Shown here: one piece after another, positions 28,823-52,358 of the stretch
How positions within the stretch are numbered: the first letter of the stretch is position 1
Layout of the letters: every line of letters begins with the position of its first letter
Assembly (NCBI GenBank): GCA_025061115.1
Contig: JANZKC010000001.1
Span: 576,001 to 640,000 of the forward strand
Reading direction: 5' to 3'
From: Candidatus Culexmicrobium cathedralense
GTDB lineage: Archaea > Thermoproteota > Methanomethylicia > Culexarchaeales > Culexmicrobiaceae
Length of the DNA stretch: 64,000 nt
Translations under genes and position numbers: made by a program
The notes under the pieces: generated by a model
What the model saw: only the letters and a program-made list of their open reading frames with translations
Databases searched by the model: none
Told to the model about the DNA's origin: nothing

Positions 28823-30220
28823 CTACTTCGAGTAAATCTTGGTCTTAGAAATGTCAATTAAGCCGTATGGAACGTTAGCCTTCCTAATGGCTTCCTCACC
28901 CCGTTCAGTCGTCAATATGAAGCCGCCGCTGCCAACGACAACCCCATTAACCATGATTATCTCACCCCTAGCAATTCCCAAGCAAGCCTTACAGGACACT
29001 GGATCTATAACTGTAATGTCGGCATCCGCACCAACACCCAAATGACCCTTACTTTCCAATCCAAGCATCCTAGCTGGATTAAGTGAAAGCTTAACCGCCA
29101 ACTCAGAAAGCGTCAATGCCCCAAACTTCACTAGGAGCATGCCCTTCTCCACAGCCACATTCCTAGGAATAGCTCCACCATCAGTGCTTATCGCATCAAT
29201 TATGAAGTTGCCATCAGAGTCCTTGGCAGTAGCCAGAACTATTTGAGCCTCAGGATCATTAACTGGAAAGCTCAAGCCAATCTCAGTTTCAGCTTCAAGC
29301 CAATACCTCAACCCTTCCTCGCCAGTAACTAGAAGCACCTCACCTCCAGCTTCAACCCTAACACGAGCATAGCCGTCTAGGATGGCTTGCTTAACCCCAT
29401 CATAAGTTTCGGGATAACCCCTAAGCCTCAAGCAGTTCCGAGTAACCCTACTAACTGGAACGCCATTAACGCACTTGCCGCTAGTCCCATTAATAGTAGC
29501 CAGGTAGGATTCGGAGGCAATATTCCGCTTACCCCTCAAATGTTCCAAAGCCTCCAAAGCCTCAGCAACAGGATCCTTAATCAAACCCCTACAATAGCTA
29601 TTCACGTGAGCAACGTGAAGCCCATTATCACCAGCAAGCTCGACAGCCTCAATAAGCCCATTCAAGTCACTGCCAGTCTCAGTAGTGCCAACGTGAAAAG
29701 CGATGTACGCTTTCTGCCTATTGCACTCCTCAATGATTTTAGCGGTCGTCTCAGGCGTGAAAGGCCTATGACCACCAGTAATCTTAAGCCCCAAAGCCCC
29801 TTCACTAACAGTTCTCGAAACAGCATTCTCAATCTCCTCATCAGTCAACGTATCACCAGCATCAGGATAATAATGCCTAATATTAGTCACGAAAAGCACG
29901 TTCAAACCAGCGCCATAAGCCTTCAAATTGCTTATAATCTCCTCAGCTGGAGCACTAAGGTCAAAAGCAGTTATAACGCCAGCCTTAGCCATCATCCTAT
30001 GCCCAAGCTTATCAATATGAACATGCGAGTCAATAACCCCTGGAAACACTATTTTACCCTTGACATCGATAGCCACTTTGGCCTTCCGAGCATCAAGCTC
30101 GTCAGCTACTTCAACTATCCTTCCATTTTCTATTCCAATATCTAAAACATCTTCAACCCCATTTTTAGGGTCAACGACAAAGCCGCCTTTAACAAGTAAA
30201 TCGTACATGGCTAATCCCAT
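28823..30220 (-). CDS. Metal-dependent amidohydrolase, substrate unknown
   Basis: PGVIDSHVH, GLK, FHVG, HVAH, STDGG, NPARMLGL, GADADITV. Confidence 0.85.
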   Translation of the reverse strand: MGLAMYDLLVKGGFVVDPKNGVEDVLDIGIENGRIVEVADELDARKAKVAIDVKGKIVFPGVIDSHVHIDKLGHRMMAKAGVITAFDLSAPAEEIISNLKAYGAGLNVLFVTNIRHYYPDAGDTLTDEEIENAVSRTVSEGALGLKITGGHRPFTPETTAKIIEECNRQKAYIAFHVGTTETGSDLNGLIEAVELAGDNGLHVAHVNSYCRGLIKDPVAEALEALEHLRGKRNIASESYLATINGTSGKCVNGVPVSRVTRNCLRLRGYPETYDGVKQAILDGYARVRVEAGGEVLLVTGEEGLRYWLEAETEIGLSFPVNDPEAQIVLATAKDSDGNFIIDAISTDGGAIPRNVAVEKGMLLVKFGALTLSELAVKLSLNPARMLGLESKGHLGVGADADITVIDPVSCKACLGIARGEIIMVNGVVVGSGGFILTTERGEEAIRKANVPYGLIDISKTKIYSK

Positions 30221-34093: not shown

Positions 34094-34183
34094 CTAAATC
34101 TAAACTAACACCAGAGTATTAAATATAATATAAACAGAAATTTAGATAAAAATGTCGTACATACAGGTTAAATTGAGGAGCTC

Positions 34184-37400: not shown

Positions 37401-37624
37401 TTAAATACTCCTCAGCTGAAGGTTAATCTACTCTGTTAATCACTAACATATGAAATCATTTATAAACTAATGCTAGAATTCTATTAAGTTCACCTTTTCA
37501 GAAACTACATAGTAACACAAAGATTAGGACTCATAACGTTATAGTTATTGTAACTTTACATGCATCAGTTATCATGCAAAACTGCTCAAAGTATTTTTAT
37601 TCGACTAACTTAGGAATTTTACTT

Positions 37625-38605
37625 ATGAATTTCATTGTGGGTGTTGATGGCGGCGGGGTGAAGACGGAAGCAGTGGTAGCTACAGTTGAAGGCGAAATTA
37701 TTGGATTTGGAAGAGGGGGACCTTCCAATATTAACGTTGCAAGTAAAAAGGAAGTGGCAAGATCGCTTAGGAAGGCAATTTTTTCAGCTTTGAAGAAGAG
37801 TGGGGCTAGTGGTAAGGCACTTGCTGGAGTTTTAGGTGTAGCTGGAACTGAAAGGAGGGATAACGCCGAAGCAATTAGAGAAATTGCTTTAAAACTTGAC
37901 TTTGCTGAAAGAGTTATCGTTACTTCAGACGCCATGATCGCACTTATCTCAGCAACCAAGATGAAACCAGGCATAATATTAATTTCAGGCACTGGCTCAA
38001 TTGCCTTTGGAATGAATAGTAATGGAAACACTGCTAGAGCAGGCGGCTGGGGCTACATACTAGATGATGAGGGAAGCGGATACTGGATAGGGCTAAGAGC
38101 ACTTAGAGAAGTTATGAAAGCATATGATGGTAGAGGACATAGAACTACTCTTGCTAGCACTTTGTTTGATCATCTTAATATTGAACAGCCAGAGGATTTA
38201 GTATCAATGATTTATTCCGGAGAATTGAAAGTTTCAAACATAGCTTCACTCGCGGAATTAGTTGTAAAGTGCGCCAAAATGGGAGATCAAGTGGCTAATG
38301 AAATACTGAGAGAAGCTGGCGAAAAACTAGCTGAAATGGCTGTAGCTGTAGCTAAGAAATTGAAATTCAATAGTAAAGTTGACATCTATTATTTTGGAGG
38401 AGTATTTAAGGCAGGCAATCTCATCTTAAAGCCACTAAAAAATAAGCTGTACGAATTAGGAGTTTTCGCTGAATTTAGGAAATCCGAATTAAAGCCAGTA
38501 GTAGGCGCAGTCATCTTAGCATTAAAGGCATTAGGTATAGATTTAGATGAAAAAATCTGGGCAAACTTAGTCGATTCGGCTAAGGCATGGGGATTAGCTC
38601 ACTAA
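37625..38605 (+). CDS. BadF/BadG/BcrA/BcrD-type N-acetylglucosamine / N-acetylmuramic acid kinase (MurK-like)
   Basis: VGVDGGGVKT, GPSN, GVAG, SDA, ISGTGSIAFG, RAGGWGYILDDEGSGYWIG. Confidence 0.85.
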   Translation: MNFIVGVDGGGVKTEAVVATVEGEIIGFGRGGPSNINVASKKEVARSLRKAIFSALKKSGASGKALAGVLGVAGTERRDNAEAIREIALKLDFAERVIVTSDAMIALISATKMKPGIILISGTGSIAFGMNSNGNTARAGGWGYILDDEGSGYWIGLRALREVMKAYDGRGHRTTLASTLFDHLNIEQPEDLVSMIYSGELKVSNIASLAELVVKCAKMGDQVANEILREAGEKLAEMAVAVAKKLKFNSKVDIYYFGGVFKAGNLILKPLKNKLYELGVFAEFRKSELKPVVGAVILALKALGIDLDEKIWANLVDSAKAWGLAH

Positions 38606-38658
38606 TTTCCAGACATAATTTAAGCTTTTACGACACCGCTCTCAATAAAATAGATAAT

Positions 38659-40632
38659 TTATGAGAATCTGCACATCATGAAATCTTTTTTTCCAAAACA
38701 GCTTGACCTCTTCGCAAACTTGCAAATTAACCCTATAATTTTAGGTAGTTCTTTAGGTCTTGTTGAAGGAAGCCCCAACCTTAAACTCTGAAACAGCTTA
38801 TAACTATTTTTAGCAACTCTAATTGGATGCGCGCCAACTCTAATTGCTGTGATAACATTAATCAAATTATCTTCCACAACTATTATTGGATCATCGCTAC
38901 CATAATTGAACCTGCTCATACACGCTTGGAAAAGTGACTCTTTCAATGGGCCAAAGCCTGAATCTCTACCTACCACATAGTGAAAAATGCTGGTTAAGCC
39001 AACCTTCTCCAATGCCTTGGAGGCGGATTTAACGCTTTGCTTGGTGGCTAAGCAAATATACGCTTCACTAGCCAACTTTCTCAAGTAATCCACTTCATTA
39101 ACTAATAGTTTCACATACCTAATTGAATTCAGTTCGAAAGACTCAATTACACTTGATGCTCTATAAAAATCCTCAACATTATTCATCCAAAGCCTAGAAA
39201 GAGCAGCAGAAACACTTTCCCATTTGAAGGCCAGATTAGCTTTAATAAGAGCTCTTTTGACTAAAATCCAATTAATATTAAAGTCGACTAACGTTCCATC
39301 AAGATCGAAAATGAACAAAGGCCTCTTCTTCGATCTCATCAATCTACTACATAGAGATTGAAACCATCTGCTCAAAGAACTTAAGCTTTTTTCTACACTT
39401 TTTCTCCACCTTATCTTCTCACTTTTCAAACTAGACAATCCAACTAATAATTGAGGTACAAGTCTAGTTGGGTCTGATAGGTGGAAATCGCTGAATCCAA
39501 ACCCTAGAAGGCCTTTTCGAGCCATGTACAGCCAAGTAGTAGGCACTTTAGCTAAATATCTAAGCCCATCAACAACCCAATAATACTCCCCCTTAAGTAC
39601 CTTTAGCGTTTTAGCCAACTTCTCAGCACTCTCCACTCCCTCTAAGTAAGCCAAAGCAAGTATCGCAGGAAAGTGATAGCCAAGAGATACGGAAAGATGC
39701 AAGCTACCCCAAAACTTAGGGTTAAGCTCAATGACATAGTACTTACCTAGCTCATAATTCCACTTTGTTTCAACCATGAGAGGGCCGCTCCACCTTAAAT
39801 GCCTAACAACAGCTCTACCCAATGCGTAAAGATTCGGATCCATCATTGGACCTTTAGCAGCTAAACTAGCACCACCACTTGGGTCGTATTCAACAATTCT
39901 TTCATGAGTAAATTCTAGTAGAGGAGTGCCCTCATAAGCTACTACGTAATATCCTCTAGCTCTTCCAGGAGCGTACTCTTGGACAAGGCATGGAGCCCTC
40001 TTTAACGCCATTTCAGCTGCTAGCTCATGCGAGATAACATACTCAGGTTTAGAGGCGTCTCCCAAACCCTTAACAACAAGCGGCGGTTTTAAATCTCTAA
40101 TTAGGTTAACATTCTCTGAGCCTTTTACAATCACTAAGCTAGGGACCTCAGCAATTCCCTTAAGAGTTTTTGGCAAGTCCCCTTTGCTTGAAGCCTTAGC
40201 AACTGCCTCATAACTAGGCGCAGCTACTTTAACTTCAAATTCATCAAAAATCTTGATGTACTTCGAAAATGTAGCTACATCAATAAAATCTACAGGTACT
40301 ACAAGATCAGCAGCTACATTTCTTGCCAGCTTAGCTACAGCTAAAGCCCATGCAGCTTTTTCCCTATCAACTTTAACAATGTGTTTCTCATCTAGAAGCT
40401 TGGAGTAATTATGAGGATGGTGAACTCTATGAGACACGCCGATAATTTTAGCTTTAATAACCTCCTTCAACGAGTACATCATCCCAATAGCTTTGCGAGA
40501 TGCTATGGAGGCTAATAAAATTTTATATGTCATCATTAATACACCCACATCCAACACATTAACGACGGAATATTTTATCACCTTACCTCCGCGATCCAGC
40601 TTTCGCGATGTTAAGTATGAAAATTGAACCAA
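38659..40632 (-). CDS. ATP-grasp domain fused to a C-terminal HAD-family hydrolase
   Basis: PLVVKG, LVQEYAPG, MVETK, IELNPKFWGS; then FIFDLDGTL, ATKQ, GRD, VVEDN. True start may be about 100 nt downstream (MMTYK). Confidence 0.8.
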   Translation of the reverse strand: MVQFSYLTSRKLDRGGKVIKYSVVNVLDVGVLMMTYKILLASIASRKAIGMMYSLKEVIKAKIIGVSHRVHHPHNYSKLLDEKHIVKVDREKAAWALAVAKLARNVAADLVVPVDFIDVATFSKYIKIFDEFEVKVAAPSYEAVAKASSKGDLPKTLKGIAEVPSLVIVKGSENVNLIRDLKPPLVVKGLGDASKPEYVISHELAAEMALKRAPCLVQEYAPGRARGYYVVAYEGTPLLEFTHERIVEYDPSGGASLAAKGPMMDPNLYALGRAVVRHLRWSGPLMVETKWNYELGKYYVIELNPKFWGSLHLSVSLGYHFPAILALAYLEGVESAEKLAKTLKVLKGEYYWVVDGLRYLAKVPTTWLYMARKGLLGFGFSDFHLSDPTRLVPQLLVGLSSLKSEKIRWRKSVEKSLSSLSRWFQSLCSRLMRSKKRPLFIFDLDGTLVDFNINWILVKRALIKANLAFKWESVSAALSRLWMNNVEDFYRASSVIESFELNSIRYVKLLVNEVDYLRKLASEAYICLATKQSVKSASKALEKVGLTSIFHYVVGRDSGFGPLKESLFQACMSRFNYGSDDPIIVVEDNLINVITAIRVGAHPIRVAKNSYKLFQSLRLGLPSTRPKELPKIIGLICKFAKRSSCFGKKDFMMCRFS

Positions 40633-41688
40633 TTAAACACTACTTATCCAATAGTTGTAAATTTCCTCAGCACTAGTCATCCAAGCCTTCTTTTCTTTCA
40701 GATACATCAAAATTTTCTCATAAAGCTTTGCCCAATCTCCATAACGTAATTCATCAAAAGTGTTGTTGTGCCAAAGAATCGTTATCACGCCATTATTTCT
40801 CTCTGTAACATCTATTAAATGTTTTATAATGTCATAGGCTTTACTAGGACTTATACGCATGTATCCATAGAAAGTTGTATCCATCACCACTAAGGGAATT
40901 TCCAGGATGTCTATCTCGGCATCCTTGTTTAGGTCATATGGTTTAAACGGGTGGCACATTCCATTTCTGAAACCCGGCATATCAGGGTATCCGAAGGTGG
41001 TATCATACTTGAAACCCAGCTGAGCTAGTAGATTCCAGGTATCAGGTACCTGAAACCTTAGGTAATGCATCCGCACTCCAATAACCCTTTTCCCTACAAC
41101 CTTTTCTACTCTCTCCCTTTCTTTAGCCAATTCTTTAGGATCATTATAAGAGTAATATCCTCCATGAAGGCCGACCTCCCAACCCATATCAACAATGTAC
41201 GCAAATTCATCCGTCAACTCATTGATATCATAAACTGAACCAAAATCTCTTGTTGCTGATTTAAAGAAAAAAGTAGATTTTGCATCATATTTATTCTCAA
41301 GTTCAATAATATACCTAAAATTCCAGTAAGGGCTAAGTGACTTGCTTTTAGTAATTCCTCCAAAAAAGCGCTTAAAGCTTTCAACTAACCTTTGGTTTTT
41401 AAGAAGTTTAAGCGTTGCAGAGAAAATGTGTTTCCAATTTGGATGAATATGATCTATGTCATGAGTTAAACATGCTGCAAATCTGAAGCCCTCAGGCCAA
41501 GCAATATCCATAATACCTTCTTTGACAAGGTAACTTGAAACAACAGGATCAAATGCATTCTTGTAATTTGAGAATTTATATATGAAACGCCCATGCTCGT
41601 CCTTCATACTACTATATTCCTGTTTTGCAGTAAAAATATCAAATAGCTCCTTTTCACGTTTTATCTTCTCAACAAAAGGAACCTTCAT
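40633..41688 (-). CDS. Polysaccharide deacetylase family protein
   Basis: LTHDID, STFFF, EVGLHG, RMHYLR, YDTT, GFRNGMCHPF, EIPLVVMD, LWHN. Confidence 0.88.
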   Translation of the reverse strand: MKVPFVEKIKREKELFDIFTAKQEYSSMKDEHGRFIYKFSNYKNAFDPVVSSYLVKEGIMDIAWPEGFRFAACLTHDIDHIHPNWKHIFSATLKLLKNQRLVESFKRFFGGITKSKSLSPYWNFRYIIELENKYDAKSTFFFKSATRDFGSVYDINELTDEFAYIVDMGWEVGLHGGYYSYNDPKELAKERERVEKVVGKRVIGVRMHYLRFQVPDTWNLLAQLGFKYDTTFGYPDMPGFRNGMCHPFKPYDLNKDAEIDILEIPLVVMDTTFYGYMRISPSKAYDIIKHLIDVTERNNGVITILWHNNTFDELRYGDWAKLYEKILMYLKEKKAWMTSAEEIYNYWISSV

Positions 41689-41864
41689 TTGACCCCCCTC
41701 AAATGAAGTAGCCTCGTTATCATTATGATTATTGTCATTTATACCATTTATTAATATAATTTTAAGCGTATAATTTTAGCCAACTAAAAACAAGCTTAAA
41801 AGGATGAGGTGATGAATCATAGCTACTTATTTAAATATTAAAAATAAATTGAATATAAAAATCA

Positions 41865-42680
41865 TTAAAATTTGATTAATAATCTACAAAGAAAATTTTT
41901 TAGTTTTTCAATATATCTTCTCTTTTGCAATTCCTTCATAAAATCGGAAATATCTGATGATGATTCCACAGAGCTTATGAATCCAGCTATCATGTGCACG
42001 CCTAGAGCAAGAGACCGCATGGAAAGTAGCACGCTTCTACTAATAGCATAAGGCCACCAATATCCAACTACCTTCATCGCCTTACCCCATAAAAAGGCTT
42101 TTCTAGGAGACACTCTAGTGGGTCTTATGAGCTTGAACTTGAGGTCATCATAAGTCCGCGCATTATAACCCTGCGATAAAGCCTTAAAAATAAGCCATGG
42201 CTCAAAGCCATAAATTAGGGGATACCTATAACCAATACTCTTAAACCAATCGGCATCAACAAGCCTACCTGCACCTCTCACACCATATTCACTGCTTTCT
42301 TCACCAACAGCAATGCCAGAGGCTACTACAACCCCATCGCGCATCATCCTCTTTGCCAGCTCCTCGACATAGTGAGGAGGCTAGAGGCAATCAGCACCTG
42401 AAATCATCACGTAATCTAGCTTAAGTGACTCGAGAACTTCAAAGCCCTTATTTATCAGATAAGCGATATAAGGTGTCCCTACCATATTTGCAGTGGATTT
42501 TCTCTTAATCCTTATAACTGTGGCGCCTAATTTCTCAGCAATATCAGCGGTCCCGTCAGAACTAGAATCGTCCACTACAACTATCTTTTGAGGGGGAATT
42601 GATTGTCTCAACAAGCTTTTCAGAGTTAACCCAATGAATTTTCTCTCATTTCTAGCTGGTATTACGACGCCATATTTCAT
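41865..42680 (-). pseudogene. Glycosyltransferase family 2 interrupted by one in-frame TAG
   Basis: VVIPARNE...VVDDSSSDGT...ISGADCL*PPHYVEELAKRMMRDG; both ORFs are in the same frame, TAG at 42381-42383. Confidence 0.8.
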
Positions 42681-43086
42681 GAATCACACCCATATGTCTG
42701 TCAACTGCACTATATTCCTAATAAAGCATCTATAAATTATTATTGAACCACTTTCTAATCAATTTTCGAACTATAAAACATTCTAAACTATAAAATAAAA
42801 TTTCTAACACTACAATCAAGAAAACTTGAAAGAGATTTACATGTTGTAAGAAGCTCTGGCGAGGCAGCATTTTAAAAGACGCATTTACTGCAACTAAGCC
42901 AGTTAAATTACTTTGGAAAAGCATTTTATATGAGTGTAGAATCATTATTCACTCAAAGTAGAACTAAAAACTAATTTCAAACCAGCAGTGAAAGCATTAA
43001 TTTTGGCGCTTAAAAATTAGCAAATAGAGGTAAATGAGGATGAGTGGAACGTGCTTTTACAATCAACTAAAAGTGGAGGTTAATCA

Positions 43087-44046
43087 ATGAATTTTAGCGA
43101 GGAAGAGAAGAGAATATTCGAGGAGCTCTCTAGGCTTGAGACCGAGCAGATAAATCCGAGGGCTCAGCAATTAAGTGAGCTGCCAACGATAGAAGTCCTA
43201 AAGGTGATTAATGAGGAAGATAAGAAGGTTGCCTATGCTATTGAAAAGGAGCTCCCAAGAATAGCTGAAGCAGTTGAAGTGATAGTTGATGCGGTGAGAA
43301 GAGGTGGAAAGTGGATATATGTGGGTGCGGGAACGAGCGGTAGGCTTGGAGTAATCGATGTTGCTGAGCTGCTTCCAACCTATAATGTCGGGCCGGAAAC
43401 TGCAGATGCCATTATAGCCGGCGGGCCGGGAGCAATGTTCAGGCCTATAGAGGGAGCGGAAGATGATGAGGAAATGGCGGTGAGAGAGCTGAAGGCTAGA
43501 AGGCTAAGGAGCAAAGACGTGGTGATTGGAATTTCAGCCAGTGGGAGAACGCCTTTCGTAATTTCAGCGCTCAAGTACGCGAGAAAAATTGGAGCTAAAA
43601 CTGTGGCGATAACCTGCGTCAAGAACTCTCCAATAACAAGGCACGCAGATATAATTATTTGCCCTCAAACTGGGCCGGAAGTAATCACCGGCTCAACAAG
43701 AATGAAGGCTGCAACAGCCCAAAAAATGATTTTGACGATGCTTAGCACTGCAGTCATGGTTAGGCTTGGAAGGGTTCACGGAAGCCTAATGGTGACTCTA
43801 GAGCCAGTTAGCAAAAAGCTCATTGAAAGAGCTAAGAGGATCATAATGATAGAAGCTGGAGTGAGCTATGAGGAGGCTGCTGAGCTGCTGGAAATGTCGG
43901 GTGGAAATGTCACCGTAGCCATAGTAATGGCAAAAGCTGGAGTTAATAGGGAAATTGCAGAGAAGCTCTTAGAAGCCTCAAACAACATACCTACAAGGGC
44001 AATTAAGCTTGCAGAGGAGCTGAAATGCAGTGAGAAGGAAAGCTGA
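43087..44046 (+). CDS. murQ: N-acetylmuramic acid 6-phosphate etherase
   Basis: TEQINP, YVGAGTSGRLGVIDVAELLPTY, IEGAED, GISASGRTPFV, GPEVITGSTRMKAATAQKMIL, KLIERA; both catalytic Glu positions retained. Confidence 0.95.
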   Translation: MNFSEEEKRIFEELSRLETEQINPRAQQLSELPTIEVLKVINEEDKKVAYAIEKELPRIAEAVEVIVDAVRRGGKWIYVGAGTSGRLGVIDVAELLPTYNVGPETADAIIAGGPGAMFRPIEGAEDDEEMAVRELKARRLRSKDVVIGISASGRTPFVISALKYARKIGAKTVAITCVKNSPITRHADIIICPQTGPEVITGSTRMKAATAQKMILTMLSTAVMVRLGRVHGSLMVTLEPVSKKLIERAKRIIMIEAGVSYEEAAELLEMSGGNVTVAIVMAKAGVNREIAEKLLEASNNIPTRAIKLAEELKCSEKES

Positions 44047-45205
44047 AGTAAAAGTTAAAACTGGACTTGACATCCTTGTAGAGGAGGACTTCAGGAGAAT
44101 TAGAGGATATACCATTGGAGTTGTGGCAAATCAAGCTTCAACAACGAGAAACCTAACCCACCTAGTTGAAGAAGCAAAGAAGAAAAGGCGATGCAATTTA
44201 GAGATAGTATTCTCGCCGGAGCACGGATTTTTAGGCGAGAGGCCGTGCGGAGAGAAGATCGCTGGAGAGTACTACGATCTAGACTATAACGTAAGGGTCT
44301 TCAGCCTATATGGAGAAAGTTTTAAGCCGCCAATAGAGCTTCTTGAAAAGCTCGACGCGCTAATATTCGACCTGCAAGATGTAGGTGTAAGGTGGTACAC
44401 CTACACGTCAACGCTATACTACTGCATCGAAGCCTGCGGCGAAGCAAAAACCCCAATATACGTGCTGGACAGGCCCAATCCAATAACCGGAGAAGTAATT
44501 GAAGGCCCAATTCTAAATCCAAAGTACAAGTCGTTTGTGGGAATTGCAGAAGTTCCCGTGAGGTATGGGCTAACAATAGGGGAATTAGCATTACTATTAA
44601 ACGACAAGTACAATCTAAAAGCAGACCTGCAAGTAGTTACAATGAAAAACTGGAAGAGAGATTATTGGTTTAAGGACACTGGGCTACCGTGGATTCTCCC
44701 ATCCCCTAACATGCCAACTCCAGAAACAGCACTAGTCTATCCTGGAACAGCACTACTTGAAGGAACCAACATCTCCGAAGGTAGGGGGACAACCAAGCCA
44801 TTCGAACTGATAGGAGCTCCATGGATTAAAGCCAGCAAGCTGGCTAAGGAACTAAATGCCCGAGGTCTGGCCGGAGTCATGTTTAGGCCAGCCTACTTTA
44901 GGCCCAGCACATCCAAGTACGCGGGAGAGCTATGCGGAGGAGTTCAAGTGCATGTGGTTGATAGGGAGGAGTTCAGAGCATTTGAAGTTGGAGTTCACAT
45001 AATATGCGCAATTAGAAACCTATATGAAGACAAGCTTCGATGGATAAGAAGAGGTCCAATCTACTTCATAGATCAGCTGGCTGGAACAAATAAGCTAAGA
45101 GAAATGGTGGATAGTGGAGTGGATGCGTGGGAAATAGTTGATAAACTCGAAAGGGAGCTAGACAAATACGTAATTGAAAGGGAGAAGTACCTGCTATACT
45201 TCTAG
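44030..45205 (+). CDS. namZ: Exo-beta-N-acetylmuramidase NamZ (DUF1343/YbbC family)
   Basis: FSPEHG, FDLQDVGVRWYTY, VLDRPNP, RYGLTIGELA, WILPSPNMP, LEGTNISEGRGTTKPFE. Confidence 0.92.
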   Translation: MRRKAEVKVKTGLDILVEEDFRRIRGYTIGVVANQASTTRNLTHLVEEAKKKRRCNLEIVFSPEHGFLGERPCGEKIAGEYYDLDYNVRVFSLYGESFKPPIELLEKLDALIFDLQDVGVRWYTYTSTLYYCIEACGEAKTPIYVLDRPNPITGEVIEGPILNPKYKSFVGIAEVPVRYGLTIGELALLLNDKYNLKADLQVVTMKNWKRDYWFKDTGLPWILPSPNMPTPETALVYPGTALLEGTNISEGRGTTKPFELIGAPWIKASKLAKELNARGLAGVMFRPAYFRPSTSKYAGELCGGVQVHVVDREEFRAFEVGVHIICAIRNLYEDKLRWIRRGPIYFIDQLAGTNKLREMVDSGVDAWEIVDKLERELDKYVIEREKYLLYF

Positions 45206-46806
45206 CCACCAACTAGAGGAACCCTAGCAAACACGTCGTCTATATTAACTGGAAGGCGGCCGCCAGCTTGCAGCTCTCCAAACAAAATCCTAACCAGCGC
45301 CTCAAGCTGAGGCAATGTAATGCCATAAGTAGCGATGAAGCACTTAACCTGCGGAAAAGCCTTAACGTCATATGGGTCTCTAGAAGCAACAATCACAGCA
45401 TTACCCAGCTTATCAACCCGATTAACAAGTTCAATCTGGCCGGGATTCAGCAATGCATTATAAGTGAAAACAATTATTGCATCGCAAAATTCAAGATCAC
45501 CCAGCAACCCCTCGACTTCCTCACGTGAAGGATCCACTGAATAGATTTGGACGCTCAGCTCTTCACACTTTCCGCTGAAAATGCTATTCAATAAAACTTC
45601 AATACCCCCATGCTCCGCACCCAACCTGCCTGCAAGCTTATCTGGAACAGCTATGCCCAGCCTTCCCAAACCACCGCTTAGAGGCAGCAAACCCTCATCC
45701 TTAACAACGGTTATCGAGCTAACAGCAATTTCAAGCACGGCCTTCCGATGGGAATTGCAGCCGACAACCGATAAAGCAGCAGGATCAAACCTGTAGCTGT
45801 AAAGGCCGAATTCCCTCCTCAAACTCTCAATTCTCGCGTAAGACTCGATCAACCTATGCTTATCAATTCTGCCAGCCTCAACACCCTTGATAATTTCATC
45901 CTTGAGCTCAATCATTAGGTCATAATCACTGGCCGGCAATAGCAAGTCAACGCCAGCATTCAATGCGAGAGCTACAATCTCCTTAGGCTCGAAGCGATCG
46001 CGAATAGCCTTCATCTCCAAAGCATCAGTCATAACAACTCCATCAAAGCCAAGCATCCCCCTCAATATTCCACCCACAATTGGCTTTGAAAGCGTAGCTG
46101 GAAGCCCCGACTCATCAATTTTAGGATAAGCTATGTGAGCAGCCATAATTGACGATACGCCGGCTTCAACTGCAGCCTTAAATGGAATCAATTCACGCTT
46201 AACCATTTCCTCCAAGCTCAAGTTCAAAACCGGAAGGTCCAAGTGGGAGTCAACCGAAGTGTCGCCGTGACCTGGAAAGTGCTTCGCAACAGCCATAACT
46301 CCATTAGATTGAAGGGATTTAATGTAAGCTTCACTGAAGGCAGCAACCTCAATTGGATCATCGCCGAAGGATCTAACCCCAATAATAGGATTAACAGGAT
46401 TGGTATTTACATCAACAACTGGAGCTAAATTCATGTTTATGCCAATAGCCTTCAACTCCTTAGCTGCAATTTCAGCTACAATTCTAGCGCATTCAATTCT
46501 CCTAGTAGCTGAAATTGCCATTAAGCTGGGAAGAGATGTTGCTCCGCGGCTAATTCTCACAACAATTCCACCCTCATAATCTATGGAGACTATCAGTGGA
46601 GGCAAACCAATCTTCTTTGCAAAGGCCTGAAAGTCTTTAATTAATCCGGCAAGCTGCTTAGGGTCAACGATGTTCCTCTTGAACAATATTATTCCAGACG
46701 GCTTAATGACCTTCAAAAGCTCTTCATGCTCCTCAGAAAACTCAACACCATGGAAGCCTACCATCATAAGCTGACCTGAAAGGAAGTTCAAATCCATCAG
46801 GCTCAC
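45202..46806 (-). CDS. nagZ: GH3 beta-N-acetylhexosaminidase (two-domain)
   Basis: GIILFKRN, IDYEGG, APVVDVN, RSFG, KHFPGHGDTSVDSH (NagZ signature), TDALEM. Confidence 0.93.
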   Translation of the reverse strand: MSLMDLNFLSGQLMMVGFHGVEFSEEHEELLKVIKPSGIILFKRNIVDPKQLAGLIKDFQAFAKKIGLPPLIVSIDYEGGIVVRISRGATSLPSLMAISATRRIECARIVAEIAAKELKAIGINMNLAPVVDVNTNPVNPIIGVRSFGDDPIEVAAFSEAYIKSLQSNGVMAVAKHFPGHGDTSVDSHLDLPVLNLSLEEMVKRELIPFKAAVEAGVSSIMAAHIAYPKIDESGLPATLSKPIVGGILRGMLGFDGVVMTDALEMKAIRDRFEPKEIVALALNAGVDLLLPASDYDLMIELKDEIIKGVEAGRIDKHRLIESYARIESLRREFGLYSYRFDPAALSVVGCNSHRKAVLEIAVSSITVVKDEGLLPLSGGLGRLGIAVPDKLAGRLGAEHGGIEVLLNSIFSGKCEELSVQIYSVDPSREEVEGLLGDLEFCDAIIVFTYNALLNPGQIELVNRVDKLGNAVIVASRDPYDVKAFPQVKCFIATYGITLPQLEALVRILFGELQAGGRLPVNIDDVFARVPLVGG

Positions 46807-47900
46807 CTCACGAGCGAAGCTGCAATTACGTTGTGAAGCTTAGGCCTAACATCTTTAATAGATGTGTTCTCCCTAGTTGGATGCACCCTTTTAGTTAGGA
46901 ATATGACGATCAATCTTGCTTCGGGATCTATCCACAAGGAAGTGCCGGTAAATCCGGTGTGCCCATAAGACTTGTCGGAGAATAGGTCGCCGCACGAAGA
47001 CCCAAAGGACTTGACATCCCACCCCAAACCCCTAGCTTCACCCAAGTCCGTAGTGTGGTTCATGGTCATCAACTTCGCGGTTCTAGGACTCAGAATTCTA
47101 ACCGCATTGTAGGAGCCGAAGTTGAGCATCATTTGAGCAAAAATTGCTAAGTCAAGTGCAGTTGAAAACAAGCCTGCATGCCCAGAAACGCCGTCCATCC
47201 TATACGCATTCTCATCATGAACTTCACCCCAAACAATTCGCCCCCTAAACTTGCAATACTCGGTTGTTGCAATTCTCTCCCTCGACTCCGCCGGAGGATT
47301 GTACATGGTGTCATTCGTGCCGAGAGGAGTGAAAATCTCTGAACTTGCAAACTCATCAATTCTAGCTCCGCAAAGCTTCTCTATGATTCTAGTTAAAATT
47401 ATGAAGCCAACGTCACTGTAAATCACTGTTTCGCCGGGCTTGCGCTCAAGGCCAGTACTTAAAGCCAAATTAAATACATCCTCCCTACTGGAAGCAGTCA
47501 AGTAAAATGGCTTCCAAGCAGGTAAACCTGAAGTGTGAGTTAGCAAGTGCATTAAAGTCACATCCTCCCGCCCATCGCCACTAAAGTTCGGTAAATACTT
47601 GCACACGGGATCGTCGAGGCGGAGAAGCCCTCTCTCAAGCAGAATCATCGCGGAGGTTGCAGCCACAACAGGCTTAGTTATTGAAGCTAGGTCGAAGATC
47701 GTGTCGATCCTCGTAATCCGCCTATCAGGAACAAGCATCGAGAAGCCGAAGGCCTTATGGTAAGCGATGAAGCCATCTTTTACAATTAGCAGAACTGCAC
47801 CTGGAAAGGCTCCACTTTCAATGCAGTTCACAATGAAATCATCTACTCGATTTAAACGCTTAACCGAAAATCCAACGTCCTCCGGACTGCACCTCTCCAA
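46803..47900 (-). CDS. Beta-lactamase-class serine hydrolase, AmiE-like (putative MurNAc-L-Ala amidase)
   Basis: FDLASITK, LLTHTSG, YSDVG, GEVHDENA, GHAGLFS, GHTGFTG; 4-bp overlap with nagZ, same order as B. subtilis amiE-nagZ. Confidence 0.8.
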   Translation of the reverse strand: MERCSPEDVGFSVKRLNRVDDFIVNCIESGAFPGAVLLIVKDGFIAYHKAFGFSMLVPDRRITRIDTIFDLASITKPVVAATSAMILLERGLLRLDDPVCKYLPNFSGDGREDVTLMHLLTHTSGLPAWKPFYLTASSREDVFNLALSTGLERKPGETVIYSDVGFIILTRIIEKLCGARIDEFASSEIFTPLGTNDTMYNPPAESRERIATTEYCKFRGRIVWGEVHDENAYRMDGVSGHAGLFSTALDLAIFAQMMLNFGSYNAVRILSPRTAKLMTMNHTTDLGEARGLGWDVKSFGSSCGDLFSDKSYGHTGFTGTSLWIDPEARLIVIFLTKRVHPTRENTSIKDVRPKLHNVIAASLVR

Positions 47901-47970
47901 TCAAGCCCACCAATAAAAGCTTGCACGCAACTATAATATCACTTTGACCACAACCATCTAGGGAGAGCTG

Positions 47971-49170
47971 ATGAACCCAATTGAAAAATTGGCTAAGCTC
48001 CAAAGCAAAAGGCGCAAAATCGCCGTAGGATTAATGTCAGGAACATCAGTCGACGGAGTTTCAGCAGTACTAGTTGAAATTGAGGGAAACTGGCTAAACA
48101 CGAAGTTCAAGATAATCGGCCACAAAACCTACCCTTACCCAAATGAGGTTAGGGAGAAGATATTCGAGCTGTTCGATCCTGAAACTGGAACGGTGGATAA
48201 GATCTGCACCATGAACTTCATTTTAGGGAAAATATTTGCTCAAGCAGTATTGAAAATAGCTGAAGAGTGCGGATTCCCAATTGGAGACGTAGACTTAATT
48301 GCAAGCCACGGACAGACAATCCACCACATGCCAAGGAAAATTAGAATTGCAAACTACGAGTCCAAGTCGACGCTGCAAATTGGCGAGCCATCAGTGATAG
48401 CTGAGGAGACAGGAGTGCTGACAATTGCAGACTTCAGGCCAAAAGATGTAGCTGCAGGCGGAGAAGGAGCACCAATAAGCGCATACGCAGACTACATAAT
48501 TTTCAGAAGCAGCAAAGCTTCAAGGGCAATTCAAAACATCGGAGGAATAGCAAACGTAACCTACATACCTAAAAGTGCGGATTTAAGCGAAGTCATAGCA
48601 TTCGACACTGGGCCGGGAAACATGCTAATAGATGCAATGGTAAAACGCGTAACAGACGGGAAAATGAAGTACGACTCCAATGGAAAGTTGGCTGCAAAGG
48701 GAAGAATTTCAGAGGAGCTGCTAAGCTGGCTCATGAATCACCCATACATCCATAGAAAACCTCCAAAAACAACTGGTCGAGAGGAATTTGGAGAAAAATT
48801 CGCCGAAAAAGTATTTGAAAAGGCAGCTGAGCTGGGAGTGAAAGGAGAAGACCTAATTGCAACAGTAACTATGTACACAGCCAAAACAATAGCAGAAAGC
48901 TACCGAAGACATCTACCCACAATGCCGGATGAAGTCATTGTCGGCGGAGGAGGCTCATACAATAAAACTCTAATGAAAATGCTGAAGGAAGAAATTGAAG
49001 AGGCAAAAATAATGACCCACGAAGACTTCAGAATACCTGCACAGGCAAAGGAGCCCCTAGTAATGGTTATCCTAGCAAATGAAGTAATTCACGGACACTT
49101 CAACAACATTCCAAACGCCACTGGAGCCTCAAGGAAAGTGATTATGGGAAAAATAGTTTTTGGAAATTAA
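47971..49170 (+). CDS. anmK: Anhydro-N-acetylmuramic acid kinase
   Basis: GLMSGTSVDG, SHGQT, DFRPKDVAAGGEGAP, NIGGIAN, FDTGPGN, PPKTTGRE, GGGSYN. Confidence 0.95.
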   Translation: MNPIEKLAKLQSKRRKIAVGLMSGTSVDGVSAVLVEIEGNWLNTKFKIIGHKTYPYPNEVREKIFELFDPETGTVDKICTMNFILGKIFAQAVLKIAEECGFPIGDVDLIASHGQTIHHMPRKIRIANYESKSTLQIGEPSVIAEETGVLTIADFRPKDVAAGGEGAPISAYADYIIFRSSKASRAIQNIGGIANVTYIPKSADLSEVIAFDTGPGNMLIDAMVKRVTDGKMKYDSNGKLAAKGRISEELLSWLMNHPYIHRKPPKTTGREEFGEKFAEKVFEKAAELGVKGEDLIATVTMYTAKTIAESYRRHLPTMPDEVIVGGGGSYNKTLMKMLKEEIEEAKIMTHEDFRIPAQAKEPLVMVILANEVIHGHFNNIPNATGASRKVIMGKIVFGN

Positions 49171-49176
49171 AATGCC

Positions 49177-50208
49177 TCACCCCAACAGCTTCCTATCAAA
49201 TTCAACCAGCTCAGGATGAACAAACCTCCCATCCTTCAGTAAGCAAGTGCCATCAACGTAAACCGTTGGATTCAAGCAATTTCCATCAGAATGAGCCTTA
49301 GCCCTTCCAACCTTACCTTTAAATCTAAGCGACTGAGAGCCGAAGCCAAACTCTATGCAGCCATAAACCCTCTCATCCTCAAGTGGAACTCCAGTCAACC
49401 TAGCTCCAGGATTAAATCCGAAGGATACATGAGCAATATAATACATTTTGGGGTCATTGAAGCCTGCAAGCCAGCGCTTAAAGGCCTCAGCCTCCCAGCC
49501 ACCCTCAACATCAACAATTCTCCCCTCCTCAATGGTTAAAGCTACAGGTGAAGAGAGTACGCCGACATTCTGAGGAGGCCAAAGAAATCCGTCCAGAACA
49601 AGCCTACCATTAATGCTCTTCTCAATTGGAGCCCAAGAAACTTGCCCGCCCAGAAACTTCAATTCACCCGGCTTGCGAACCTTACCATCATTATGGTAAA
49701 CCGGCCTATGGGGATCGTTTTCCATCACAAGTGAAGTCCCCTTAGGAGAATGCACTTCGATTTTCCTCGCCATTGAAATCACCTTTGCAAGCGCATCGCC
49801 AAGCTTGCACATCGCCTCATAATCCACCTTGCCGATCAACCTAATCATCATGTCAGGATTCATTCCAGTCAAATCGCAAATCCTAGCCCCAGCATTTAGA
49901 GCCTCGTAGAAAGCATTGGTATGAATAATATATTGGTATACGAAGTCTATGATGACGTCACTTGAAGCCATTGCAGCTGCAACTGGCTTTGGAGGCTCAA
50001 CATTAACCTCGCTCCTAGTCTCATAAACAACTTCAACAGCCTCACCTCCAACCGCATGAGCCATGGCGGTGACCACATCAACCATACTTCTGTCAACTGC
50101 AGTATCAGCTAAAACTAGAACTGACTCACCAGCTTCAACGCCAGCTAAAAGCTTCACGACCTTATATGCAGCTCTAGCAAGCTCCATAAACATGCGGCCA
50201 CCAAGCAC
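49177..50208 (-). CDS. M29-like (aminopeptidase T / leucyl aminopeptidase-type) metallo-enzyme
   Basis: GESVLVLAD, EPPKPVAAAM, GTSL, NGRLVLDG, GFNP, EDERVYG, HSDG. Some metal ligands look atypical, so the substrate is uncertain. Confidence 0.7.
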   Translation of the reverse strand: MLGGRMFMELARAAYKVVKLLAGVEAGESVLVLADTAVDRSMVDVVTAMAHAVGGEAVEVVYETRSEVNVEPPKPVAAAMASSDVIIDFVYQYIIHTNAFYEALNAGARICDLTGMNPDMMIRLIGKVDYEAMCKLGDALAKVISMARKIEVHSPKGTSLVMENDPHRPVYHNDGKVRKPGELKFLGGQVSWAPIEKSINGRLVLDGFLWPPQNVGVLSSPVALTIEEGRIVDVEGGWEAEAFKRWLAGFNDPKMYYIAHVSFGFNPGARLTGVPLEDERVYGCIEFGFGSQSLRFKGKVGRAKAHSDGNCLNPTVYVDGTCLLKDGRFVHPELVEFDRKLLG

Positions 50209-50222
50209 AAACTATTACATGG

Positions 50223-50235
50223 CTAGTATTACTAG
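50223..50235. promoter_or_regulatory. Palindrome CTAGTA-T-TACTAG upstream of the aminopeptidase gene
   Basis: Perfect 13-bp palindrome containing the same GTATTACTA box seen at 9452-9471. Confidence 0.45.
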
Positions 50236-50290
50236 GTTGCGCTAACGCGAATTGAGGATAATAAAGTTATGTAAAAAGAGTGCGGAGCTC

Positions 50291-51601
50291 CTAGTACCTC
50301 CTACGCATATACTGGAGAAGCAATATCACAATTATTATCACTATTAAAGCAGCAACCACGTAGAGCGTCGCTGGAGGAGGTGGAGGAGGACGACTACTAA
50401 CATTTACAGTCACTGAATTCGACTGAACATTATCAGCAACTGCGCGCGCCGTGTATGAGCCGGCCTCTCCAAAAGTCACCGTAAACGAAGCAACGCCATT
50501 AGCGTCGGTAGTCCTTATGCTGTAAAGCTCATCGTTAATGTATAGAGTTACGCTGACGCCGGACATCGGATTGCCATTTTGATCGTGAACCGTAGCTCTA
50601 AATGTAACTGGCTCGCCAGTTACGGCGGACTCCTTATCAACCTCCAAGCTTATGCTAGTCACAGTCGGAGCTGGCGGCAGAGGGCTGACGGTCACCGTAA
50701 TAGTGTTGGACTTCACGGAGTCCGCGATCGCATATACTTCGTGAGCACCCTCAACATCAAATCTAACTAGGAATACAGCTGCACCTCCAATTCCAGCATA
50801 CTTGGTGTCGTAGAGCTCTCCATCAACCATCAAATCGACTTGAACTCCAGCCATAGGACTACCGTACTGGTCTCGGACTGTTGCCGTAAAGATCACTACA
50901 CCCCCAACATCAACTTCAGTTGTTTCAGCGTCAAGCAATATGCTGTGAACTGCAGGGGGCTCGCGAACAGTTATATCAACAGTATTCGATTGAACGCCAT
51001 CAGCTACCGCGTAAACTTCAAAGACACCCGCTTCATCGAAAGTGACGTAGAAAGTTACTGTACCATCATAAGAGGAATTCCGAGCCCCGTAAAGCTCCCC
51101 ATCAATGTATAGTTTTACTTCAACATTGGCCATGGGGTCGCCATACTGATCATAGACTACAGCAGTGAATGCCACCACATCTCCAACGTAGATCATGCGT
51201 ATATTGGCAGTAAGCTCAACCCTACTAACTACTGGTGGAGGAGCACTAACAGTAAACGTGCACGTACTAACACTACCAGTGGAAACATCCTTAGCATAAA
51301 GCGTATAATCTCCAGTGGGCCAGTCGCTTGGAACCTTCAGCTGCATGGTTAGAGTGCCATCTGAAGATGCAACATCCTCCCAAACCCACATTGGACCAGT
51401 AGGCCCATTAAGCTGAAGCATAACCTTTCCATTTGGAGTAGCGCCTGAGACAGTTATCGTCATAACCTCGCCCAATCTATATGAAGACTTGTCGGTTGTA
51501 ACAGTAAATGAGGCATACACTAGAACTGTGGTAAACGATAGGGCGAAGAGCAAAGTTAGTGTTAGCAAAGCCAAACCCCTTAGTCTCATGATAATCACCA
51601 C
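50291..51601 (-). CDS. Cell-surface protein with Ig-like (Big-1-like) repeats and C-terminal TM anchor
   Basis: Signal peptide, N-terminal TDKSSYRLGE domain, three repeats of about 95 aa, poly-Pro linker, TM helix, RRRY tail. Confidence 0.85.
   Translation of the reverse strand: MVIIMRLRGLALLTLTLLFALSFTTVLVYASFTVTTDKSSYRLGEVMTITVSGATPNGKVMLQLNGPTGPMWVWEDVASSDGTLTMQLKVPSDWPTGDYTLYAKDVSTGSVSTCTFTVSAPPPVVSRVELTANIRMIYVGDVVAFTAVVYDQYGDPMANVEVKLYIDGELYGARNSSYDGTVTFYVTFDEAGVFEVYAVADGVQSNTVDITVREPPAVHSILLDAETTEVDVGGVVIFTATVRDQYGSPMAGVQVDLMVDGELYDTKYAGIGGAAVFLVRFDVEGAHEVYAIADSVKSNTITVTVSPLPPAPTVTSISLEVDKESAVTGEPVTFRATVHDQNGNPMSGVSVTLYINDELYSIRTTDANGVASFTVTFGEAGSYTARAVADNVQSNSVTVNVSSRPPPPPPATLYVVAALIVIIIVILLLQYMRRRY
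50395..51235 (-). repeat. Three intragenic Ig-like repeats (approximate bounds)
   Basis: FxAxVxDQxGxPMxxVxVxLxxxxELY...VxFxxxGxxxxxAxADxVxSN occurs three times. Confidence 0.85.
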
Positions 51602-52158
51602 TAACCTTGAACTTGGAAGGTAAATTCAAGCCCACTCTTGGAAGCTAAAGGTACTCCTCCCTCATCAAGCCAGTTGCTCCACACCATAACCTTAACCTTA
51701 TAAGTTCCAGTTGGGGCATCATCCGGAATTCTATATCCAATGCCAGCAGACTCGGTTTCGCCTGGAGATATCTCCTCAACAACGAAACCCATGAACACTG
51801 GAGTATTCCCATACATTACTTGGATTAGTAGCAAGAACTTAGTTGGCGTAGTGAAGTAGTAATAAGAGGTAGTATCTCCAAAGTAGTAAGCATATGCCAT
51901 CTCGATAGTTGCGTTTATCAAGACCAGCTCGCCTCTGCTAAATGTGCTCTTAGGATTTCCCGTCTGATCAGCGCTGAAAGCTGTAGTTATGTCTAGGGGT
52001 AATTCTTGAGATGGAGCTATGAAGCTCGCCAATGAGCCAATATAGCTGATTAAAGCGCCAACAGCAATAACTGCTACCAGCACTATTGCTATTAACCGCT
52101 TAGCGTCAATTTCAATGACAATCTCCCTAATTTCACCTTCGGGCAAAGCTTCTCCCAT
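51601..52158 (-). CDS. Membrane-anchored Ig-like domain protein
   Basis: N-terminal TM helix, KSTFSRGELV, IPDDAPTGTYKVKVMVW. Confidence 0.75.
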   Translation of the reverse strand: MGEALPEGEIREIVIEIDAKRLIAIVLVAVIAVGALISYIGSLASFIAPSQELPLDITTAFSADQTGNPKSTFSRGELVLINATIEMAYAYYFGDTTSYYYFTTPTKFLLLIQVMYGNTPVFMGFVVEEISPGETESAGIGYRIPDDAPTGTYKVKVMVWSNWLDEGGVPLASKSGLEFTFQVQG

Positions 52159-52358
52159 CCATTAAATTCTATTGAATCATATTAAAGCGCCATCTATTTA
52201 TATGTTATTCCCTCCCAATAAAGCCCTATAAATTAGCAACATACTTAAGCTAACCTAAAATAACAAATAAATATTCATAATAACATTAGCAAAGTAAATT
52301 TACACAACGGAAATAGAGGCATTGCCTAGCCATAAGCAAAGTTGGTTGGAGGGCGAAA

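Follow-up and report, generated by a model that had tools for sequence, protein, structure and literature searches.

What is a gene cluster for the breakdown of bacterial murein doing in an archaeon that has no murein? The question is raised by a stretch of 64,000 nucleotides (the window), positions 576001-640000 of the 843,365-bp contig C1 of Candidatus Culexmicrobium cathedralense, whose genome (labelled G000) comprises 1.98 Mb in 25 contigs. The window encodes a MurK-like sugar kinase, MurQ, NamZ, NagZ, an AmiE-like hydrolase, AnmK and a metalloenzyme, orf343 (Table 1). We consider it likely, from gene content and context, that this cluster is a long-resident archaeal copy of the bacterial catabolic route for N-acetylmuramic acid (MurNAc) and 1,6-anhydro-MurNAc (anhMurNAc), and that it would consume murein fragments of foreign origin. 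The enzyme families are known; what is new here is their presence in a murein-less archaeal host, in a cytoplasmic, kinase-driven arrangement that is order-wide and recurrent in the phylum. We compared the cluster with the 12 genomes of the window's order (families f1, which is the window's own, f2 and f3), with a class sample of 62 genomes, and with an evenly drawn phylum sample of 401 genomes, in which MurQ was counted above its cut-off. Targeted profile searches covered five genomes (G000, G010, G006, G007 and G003), with bacterial positive controls each time. Motif positions were computed from the sequence.

The gene coordinates and the overlaps between murQ and namZ (17 bp) and between the AmiE-like gene and nagZ (4 bp) that an earlier note on this DNA had given agreed with the open reading frame (ORF) map. 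MurQ scored 334.5 bits against the equivalog model TIGR00274 (cut-off 302) over residues 18-300, and aligned end to end with the PDB structures 4s12 (E-value 5.6e-76) and 4lzj (1.8e-69). Two of its residues, E94 in VAELLPT and E125 in EGAEDD, aligned with conserved glutamates of both structures; the catalytic glutamates of E. coli MurQ are Glu83 and Glu114. The protein is predicted to convert MurNAc-6-phosphate (MurNAc-6-P) to N-acetylglucosamine-6-phosphate (GlcNAc-6-P) and D-lactate. NamZ contained both domains of its family (NamZ_N, 1.8e-77; NamZ_C, 2e-56) and matched PDB 4k05 across its full length (9.1e-75, residues 4-390). No signal peptide was found in NamZ, whose maximal ORF has 28 residues ahead of the domain and no hydrophobic leader among them; named bacterial relatives were frequently 20-60 residues longer. 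The characterised NamZ of B. subtilis is extracytoplasmic, and the leaderless, cytoplasmic archaeal form contrasts usefully with the secreted enzyme of bacteria. NagZ exceeded the cut-off of the equivalog model NF003740 (225.6 bits against 207), with PDB matches to 6k5j (3.2e-93) and B. subtilis YbbD (4.1e-72). It carries KHFPGHGDT..DSH at 175-188 and TD, the nucleophile context, at 260-261; the NagZ signature is KH(F/I)PG(H/L)G..D(S/T)H, with its Asp-His, plus a nucleophile Asp.

AnmK matched PF03702 (1.5e-98) and passed two further cut-offs, NF007148 with 490.9 bits against 387 and NF007142 with 454.6 against 435. Its catalytic Asp, D212 in DTGPGN, is kept, and this residue is conserved in levoglucosan kinase and AnmK structures alike. 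The nearest neighbours of the protein in a protein atlas were bacterial AnmK clusters only, which gave no resolution; the genomic context with MurQ favours anhMurNAc as the likely substrate. The AmiE-like protein belongs to the Beta-lactamase family PF00144 (5.4e-71), with SITK at 73 and HTG at 314, and a pattern search for the canonical second motif Y-x-N found none. Its best NCBIfam match was PBP4B, with 233 bits, below the cut-off of 385. From this we infer that it would act as a MurNAc-L-Ala amidase or a stem-peptide peptidase. The catalytic signatures of the cluster had been described as intact, and this held for MurQ, NagZ, AnmK and the AmiE-like protein, whose motifs were conserved in end-to-end alignments to solved structures.

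The kinase lies apart from the other genes, its end 4.48 kb before murQ. Its maximal ORF spans 37574-38605 on the forward strand, and homology began at Met18 (base 37625), which is the start that had been proposed for it. The kinase matched the BadF/BadG family (PF01869, 1.5e-49), and its top PDB match was the clostridial MurNAc/GlcNAc kinase MurK (8zo3, 7.9e-53); the sole NCBIfam match, NagK_SO3507, gave 144 bits, far under its cut-off of 370. The gene is single-copy in G000, and its product shares 61% identity with the kinases encoded next to murQ in family f1. The orthologue stands directly upstream of murQ in all eight other loci of the order that cover that side. A kinase also adjoins MurQ in 8 of nine loci from eight other archaeal families (the exception being G357), and NamZ, NagZ or an AmiE-like gene is frequently present there as well. 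An exhaustive MurQ search returned 9260 matches at E<=0.001, and four of the eight representatives examined were fusions of a BadF-type kinase with MurQ, in either domain order. These fusions, together with the adjacency, indicate that the kinase works with MurQ, and its product would be MurNAc-6-P and/or GlcNAc-6-P. Fusions were common among the MurQ representatives (P0006, P0011, P0016, P0020, P0027 and P0038); one of the eight was a MupG-MurQ fusion, and a NanE/pterin-binding-like domain was also found joined to MurQ.

Table 1. Genes of the murein-fragment cluster and associated features; positions are those of the window.
Feature	Position	Strand	Evidence
MurK-like sugar kinase, BadF/BadG/BcrA/BcrD ATPase family	37625..38605	+	PF01869, PDB match
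Glycan-biosynthesis insertion, about 4.4 kb, outside the pathway	38659..42680	-	Pfam and NCBIfam
MurQ, MurNAc-6-phosphate etherase	43087..44046	+	TIGR00274, PDB alignment
NamZ, DUF1343/GH171-type exo-beta-N-acetylmuramidase	44030..45205	+	NamZ_N, NamZ_C; 17-bp overlap with murQ
NagZ, GH3 beta-N-acetylglucosaminidase	45202..46806	-	NF003740, PDB alignment
AmiE/PBP4B-like beta-lactamase-fold serine hydrolase	46803..47900	-	PF00144; 4-bp overlap with nagZ
AnmK, 1,6-anhydro-sugar kinase (anhMurNAc to MurNAc-6-P)	47971..49170	+	PF03702, NF007148
orf343, NicX/aminopeptidase-T-like metalloenzyme (M29 superfamily)	49177..50208	-	PDB 7cn3
Amidohydrolase	28823..30220	-	66-73% identical orthologues beside the cassette in six relatives

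The distribution of the genes separated a conserved core from later additions. AnmK was present in 11 of the 62 genomes of the class, all 11 in the window's order, where it occurred in 10 of the 11 other genomes (f1 4/4, f2 1/1, f3 5/6, the miss being a 45%-complete genome); the remaining families of the class had none (0/50). The genes kinase-murQ-namZ were adjacent and on one strand in 8/8 other loci of the order that cover this side (G003-G008, G010 and G011). In six of those eight, nagZ was convergent to namZ, and anmK in the order was either adjacent to the cassette or 1.7-5 kb distant. The conserved ancestral core is thus the kinase-murQ-namZ operon with nagZ and anmK. At the locus, the AmiE-like gene and orf343 were confined to G000 and its congener G012, and they are genus-level additions outside this core. 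Homologues of the AmiE-like protein were found beside the cassette in other families, in G213 (61% identity), G307 (54%) and G118 (42%).

The second of these additions, orf343, had been called an M29-like peptidase. It matched no Pfam family at E<=1, Peptidase_M29 (PF02073) included, and its PDB relative was the 2,5-dihydroxypyridine dioxygenase NicX (7cn3, 9e-16), with the His..His-x-Asp positions conserved. The former name is therefore valid at the superfamily level only. Relatives of orf343 carry PF26233, and among the 120 matches listed 3 also carry PF02073; the family is widespread, its named members are mostly archaeal, and sources name it aminopeptidase T, M29 or NicX. The protein is a possible peptide-processing accessory.

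We then considered where the substrate would come from and where it would be processed. Neither MurB_C nor Mur_ligase_M was found in any of the five genomes searched (0/5 each), indicating that the MurNAc substrate is exogenous: these archaea lack the known route of MurNAc synthesis, and their MurNAc comes from outside. No leader peptide or membrane anchor was found in the kinase, MurQ, NamZ, NagZ, the AmiE-like protein, AnmK or orf343, and neither the EIIC component of a phosphotransferase system (PTS) nor an RpiR/MurR helix-turn-helix domain was found in the 12 genomes of the order (0/12 each). Taken together, these results point to a route that is predicted to be wholly cytoplasmic, kinase-driven and independent of PTS and MurR.

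We propose the following route, all steps of which are inferred from family membership and gene context. Soluble fragments (with GlcNAc-MurNAc, MurNAc-GlcNAc and GlcNAc-anhMurNAc, bearing peptide or not, as candidates) would be imported. In the cytoplasm, NagZ would take off terminal GlcNAc and NamZ terminal MurNAc, both from non-reducing ends. The AmiE/PBP4B-like enzyme would strip or trim the stem peptide in this genus, and an AmpD-type amidase would do so in some relatives. AmpD-type Amidase_2 was found in G006 and G010 and not in G000, and the beta-lactamase-fold gene of the genus of G000 may be a non-orthologous replacement of AmpD. The MurK-like kinase would phosphorylate MurNAc and probably GlcNAc, while AnmK would turn anhMurNAc into MurNAc-6-P. 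Both kinases would lead to MurQ, consistent with the earlier proposal that lysozyme-type (MurNAc) and lytic-transglycosylase-type (anhMurNAc) fragments are both handled. MurQ would split the lactyl ether, yielding GlcNAc-6-P and D-lactate. Finally, a fusion of NagB with PIG-L found in family f3 could take GlcNAc-6-P to fructose-6-phosphate. These domains, a NagB-type deaminase and a PIG-L deacetylase, lie in a single frame of 604-628 aa in G006 (C3:95820-97280) and G007 (C1:147052-148536); in G005 (C29:21036-21503), where PIG-L alone was searched for, a PIG-L domain lies in a 605-aa frame. A GlcD-like FAD-linked oxidase (62663-64000, forward strand, running off the window) scored 311 bits against TIGR00387, below the cut-off; it lies 12 kb from the cluster, unlinked to it, and may be a D-lactate dehydrogenase acting on what MurQ releases.

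Among known systems, the B. subtilis operon murQ-murR-murP-amiE-nagZ-namZ had been offered as a model. In B. subtilis, NagZ, AmiE and NamZ are extracellular, and MurNAc is taken up by the MurP PTS under MurR control. The archaeal cluster shares the families MurQ, NagZ, NamZ and a beta-lactamase-fold AmiE-like protein with this operon, but all of its enzymes are leaderless, no PTS or RpiR regulator accompanies them in the order, and AnmK and the MurK-like kinase are added. With no signal peptide on NagZ, NamZ or the AmiE-like protein and no PTS EIIC or RpiR/MurR in 12/12 genomes, this analogy proved misleading. Tannerella forsythia scavenges MurNAc by MurT-MurK-MurQ with NamZ, and Clostridium acetobutylicum uses MurK-MurQ. 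These two share with the archaeal cluster a PTS-independent, kinase-dependent entry to MurQ, a BadF-type MurK-like kinase encoded beside MurQ, NamZ in the system, and MurNAc made by other bacteria. They differ from it in that the present host is an archaeon without murein, NamZ is leaderless, no MurT-like importer lies in the cluster, and AnmK belongs to the conserved set. The E. coli route (AmpG, NagZ, AmpD, AnmK and MurQ; murQ-murP-yfeW/PBP4B) serves to recycle the wall of the cell itself, with MurNAc taken up through the MurP PTS. Its likeness to the archaeal cluster lies in cytoplasmic NagZ, AnmK and MurQ acting on anhydromuropeptides and in a PBP4B-like gene associated with murQ. Here, in contrast, PTS and MurR (0/12 each), LdcA (0/5) and, in G000, AmpD are lacking, and NamZ and the MurK-like kinase are present. 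The predicted route is thus closer to the clostridial and Tannerella MurK-MurQ systems, plus the NagZ and AnmK steps of E. coli, than to the B. subtilis operon.

Several findings weigh against a murein-catabolic route. In G000 the kinase is split off from its operon. Neither LdcA (0/5) nor another recognised stem-peptide peptidase was found in the five genomes. No importer was identified among the candidates of G000, which comprised the neighbours of its cluster and those of the cassettes of its relatives. NagA was above its cut-off in none of the five genomes (0/5), two amidohydrolases of G000 reaching only 55 and 51 bits against 225.65, and neither NagB nor PIG-L was found in G000 or in its family f1. 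Among solved structures, AnmK was nearer to the fungal levoglucosan kinase 4zxz (4e-78) than to the bacterial AnmK 3cqy (5.6e-64), and the second PDB match of the MurK-like kinase, the Sulfolobus hexokinase 2e2n (3e-48), is a broad-specificity enzyme nearly as close as MurK.

The missing NagA, NagB and PIG-L give room in G000 for an anabolic, amino-sugar-sparing purpose, in which GlcNAc-6-P would enter UDP-GlcNAc for N-glycans or surface glycans instead of supplying carbon and energy. This alternative overlaps with murein catabolism and differs from it in the end use. The location of the cluster agrees with it: a glycosyltransferase island lies on one side, and on the other a GT-C-like membrane glycosyltransferase accompanied by an Ig-domain surface protein. 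Against this, f3 has the same cassette together with the NagB-PIG-L fusion able to complete catabolism, and the neighbouring glycan genes are not kept beside the cassette outside f1. We regard an anabolic purpose as doubtful.

A second alternative is that murein is not what the enzymes act on, their substrates being instead chitin or N-glycan oligosaccharides for NagZ and the kinase, levoglucosan-type anhydro-sugars for AnmK, and other lactyl-ether sugars for MurQ. The structural matches of AnmK and of the kinase to the levoglucosan kinase and the archaeal hexokinase would suit this, and so would five genomes of the phylum sample (G113, G169, G257, G385 and G387, of families f31, f60 and f48, some of them complete single contigs) that have AnmK and NamZ and no MurQ over its cut-off; in those lineages, AnmK and NamZ may serve a different route. 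In the window, however, MurQ is over a curated equivalog cut-off with both glutamates kept, and AnmK is over two equivalog cut-offs. NamZ, of an exo-muramidase family, was co-operonic with MurQ in nearly all archaeal loci examined and occurred in 34 of the 36 sampled genomes having MurQ. Non-murein substrates are therefore improbable as an explanation of the cluster.

The earlier note had left open whether this archaeon scavenges wall debris or lives on bacteria. An intracellular route for lysozyme-type and transglycosylase-type products would suit a predator or epibiont that attacks bacteria and uses the cluster to process the lysed material. SLT/GH23, GH25 and LysM were each found in none of the five genomes (0/5), Amidase_3 occurred among them only on one small contig of one relative (G006), and none of the cluster enzymes is secreted. 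The failure to find murein-lytic enzymes in G000 fits the scavenging of soluble fragments and not predation. A life on bacteria found no support, and an active attack on them is very improbable.

The remaining alternative is that the cluster is not archaeal DNA at all. The host comes from hot vent sediments, and the contig C4 of its genome carries archaeal small- and large-subunit rRNA genes that win the Rfam clan competition. The window itself encodes the primase PriS, archaeal HMG-CoA synthase and thiolase genes of the mevalonate pathway, and a ribophorin-I-like protein, bearing out the claim that archaeal core genes share it with the cluster. The nearest named loci for AnmK were in metagenome-assembled genomes of Candidatus Methanomethylicota/Methanomethylicia archaea (81% and 61%) and in Candidatus Culexarchaeum nevadense (58%), followed by one uncultured bacterium at 42%. 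The GC content of the cluster genes (0.43-0.47) is like that of the flanking host genes (0.46-0.47) and unlike that of the AT-rich island genes at 30.4-37.4 kb (0.30-0.36), as had been noted before; the genome in 1-kb steps has a mean of 0.412 and a standard deviation of 0.045.

Seven public sequencing runs from seven studies, none listed as RNA, contain parts of the stretch, and four of them were mapped onto 34000-53000. The depth of run X1, which is the likely source of the assembly and hence not independent, was even over 34-53 kb (72-103). One X1 contig spans 34000-43253, from the island through the kinase and the insertion into murQ, and other X1 contigs cover murQ-namZ-nagZ, nagZ-AmiE-anmK, and anmK onward. 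Contigs of run X2, from another study and 95-99% alike, bridge the junctions nagZ/AmiE, AmiE/anmK/orf343 and orf343/next gene; an X2 contig at 41994-43116 enters murQ by 30 letters only and was not counted as bridging. The even coverage that had been asked for was thus found. Although the estimated contamination of the bin is 7.65%, the cluster lies deep within an 843-kb contig with even depth, junctions bridged in two studies and host-like composition, and 10 further genomes of the order have the same cluster within the same archaeal synteny, so that an assembly chimera or bacterial contamination is effectively excluded and the cluster is genuine archaeal DNA.

Within anmK, at 48157-48632, loose ends with identical flanking letters were seen in X1 and X4. 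Joints at 37124>45469 (X4) and 48176>48593 (X1, X2 and X4) had sides of 20-21 letters, below the 30-letter reliability limit. The loose ends and short joints in anmK suggest a co-occurring relative in which a short and nearly identical part of anmK lies in another context.

The cassette extends beyond the order. In the phylum sample, MurQ was found in 36, AnmK in 34 and NamZ in 41 of the 401 genomes, with at least one of them in 45. All three occurred together in 26 of the 401 (about 6%), 9 in the window's own order and 17 outside it, so the trait is not the singular one that it had seemed. In G213, NagZ stands beside kinase-MurQ-NamZ, which is followed by the AmiE-like gene. An OPT oligopeptide transporter, a C39-like cysteine peptidase and a genuine diaminopimelate decarboxylase, LysA (456 bits against 297.9), stand on the flanks of the cassette there (positions 1459-13045 of the locus C1:212000-229000), and this may be a fuller muropeptide-utilisation locus.

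Phylogenetic trees were built for MurQ (FastTree with 167 rows and IQ-TREE with 39 of those 167; unrooted, most rows unlabelled) and for NamZ (86 rows, unrooted). In the MurQ trees, the 9 sequences of the window's order fell into one clade with families f33, f41, f50 and f55 and one unlabelled representative (support 100/99), while f22 and f40, and also f15 and f17, were placed elsewhere. Within that clade f1 grouped with f33, f41, f50 and f55 (98/91), apart from f2 and f3, and the approximately unbiased (AU) test did not reject monophyly of the order (p = 0.36). In the NamZ tree, the order was monophyletic (99) and lay within a 36-row clade (100) together with f33, f41, f50, f55 and a Thermoprotei sequence; the 11 named bacteria all fell outside this clade. 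Two further archaeal groups stood elsewhere in the NamZ tree, one of Bathyarchaeia, Thermoproteales and f17 and the other of Nitrososphaeria and Bathyarchaeia. All five named NamZ relatives with at least 50% identity were archaeal. Profile searches and trees had been proposed on the expectation that one archaeal clade would mean ancient acquisition; the trees gave at least two or three archaeal clades, with the window's order in a large all-archaeal one. The agreement of the MurQ and NamZ trees fits an old acquisition of the whole cassette at once and its vertical descent within the order thereafter, so that the cassette would have been acquired from bacteria long ago and inherited through the whole order. 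Its patchy spread to other families would reflect either transfer between archaea or many losses.

The literature holds a parallel outside the archaea. According to PMC13198582, anaerobic ciliates have laterally acquired pbp4b, NamZ, anmK, nagB-PIGL, murQ and lysA; that paper regards the amino-sugar genes as forming a complete pathway of peptidoglycan degradation and places the donors in uncultured "dark matter" lineages. The ciliates resemble the archaea in being murein-less hosts of genes of prokaryotic origin, and the NagB-PIG-L fusion (in f3) and the LysA neighbour (in G213) also occur in archaea. They differ in being eukaryotic, with scattered transcripts rather than an operon, and an archaeal pathway is not described in that paper (PMC13198582). 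That one module recurs in murein-less organisms of two kinds lends good circumstantial support to its function. Literature searches, which had the supplements of PMC9723716 and PMC13198582 outside their range, returned no paper describing this route in archaea, in agreement with the earlier note, which knew of no characterised archaeal version. The main text of the Culexarchaeia paper (PMC9723716) lists fructose and galactose as sugars and does not contain the terms muramic, peptidoglycan, murein, chitin or acetylglucosamin-. In the parts of two further papers that were accessible, peptidoglycan-degrading CAZymes are mentioned in general terms only (PMC13288992, PMC10437873), and in that of a third, Candidatus Bathyarchaeota appears in niche-overlap tables only, with no link to MurNAc catabolism (PMC10322874).

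In sediments, much carbon and nitrogen is bound in peptidoglycan, a large and rather recalcitrant pool whose turnover is credited almost wholly to bacteria. A cassette that is order-wide and has relatives in about 6% of the sampled genomes of the phylum would put some heterotrophic archaea among the consumers of wall debris. It also points to gaps: an archaeal importer of muropeptides or MurNAc and, in f1, a non-canonical GlcNAc-6-P deacetylase and deaminase. Supplied as selective substrates, MurNAc or muropeptides may help to enrich these uncultured archaea. More speculatively, and we advance this only as a tentative possibility, the cytoplasmic kinase-driven cassette might define a murein-necromass niche in uncultured Thermoproteota, having arisen by several bacterial donations followed by passage between archaea as a unit; it might involve unrecognised families of importer and GlcNAc-6-P enzymes, and archaeal cassettes might possibly have been the donors of the near-identical gene set of the anaerobic ciliates.

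Several candidates for the importer were rejected. In G317, the ABC system immediately upstream of kinase-murQ-namZ has a permease that passes the ModB molybdate equivalog (189.5 bits against 182.6); this, together with MoeA genes at the same place in G118, indicates adjacency to molybdenum genes. The product of orf576 (52359-54089) is GT-C/STT3-like and belongs to an archaeal family with one member carrying PF02516, and it is probably a glycosyltransferase. The OPT transporter and the C39-like peptidase of G213 have no orthologue in G000 and were set aside as parts of the route here. The major facilitator permease beside the cluster of G003 has a 57% orthologue in G000 that is generic and lies 570 kb away (C1:3119-4309).

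The flanks of the cassette differ between families. In f2 and f3, a thioredoxin gene and an amidohydrolase gene are transcribed divergently from kinase-murQ-namZ. Orthologues of the amidohydrolase encoded at 28823-30220, with 66-73% identity, stand beside the cassette in G003, G004, G005, G006, G007 and G008. This protein gave weak N-terminal matches only, to dihydroorotase, D-aminoacylase and FwdA, and a functional link to the cassette is possible.

The insertion between the kinase and murQ was present in G000 only and absent from that position in all other loci examined. It contains an ATP-grasp+HAD fusion (38659-40632), a VimE-like deacetylase (40633-41688), orf160 and a 99-aa fragment of a family 2 glycosyltransferase (GT2; 42381-42680), at a GC content of 0.36-0.40. 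A glycan island at 30300-42700 (GC 0.30-0.40) surrounds the kinase, with GT4 and GT2 genes and glycosyltransferase fragments at 36146-36856 and 42381-42680, and the related strain in X2 also has this island. On the other side, a trio at 50291-54089 is kept beside the cluster in f1 (G010, G011 and G012). It consists of a surface protein that has an Ig domain, a leader and a C-terminal anchor; of a small membrane protein; and of orf576, a polytopic protein of 576 aa with GT-C/STT3-like leads; paralogues of the Ig-domain protein and of orf576 lie at about C1:680-702 kb. Further along, an ATP sulfurylase, a DHH/DHHA1 phosphoesterase and a type I phosphodiesterase stand in a row at 55173-58694 on the forward strand, and the ATP sulfurylase is syntenic with the flank of the cluster in G010 and G011. 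The word ribophorin is absent from the main text of PMC9723716. At 14767-16431 on the forward strand, the window encodes a 554-aa protein with a Ribophorin I domain (PF04597, 4.9e-10), a domain of a eukaryote-type oligosaccharyltransferase subunit in a Thermoproteota-type archaeon.

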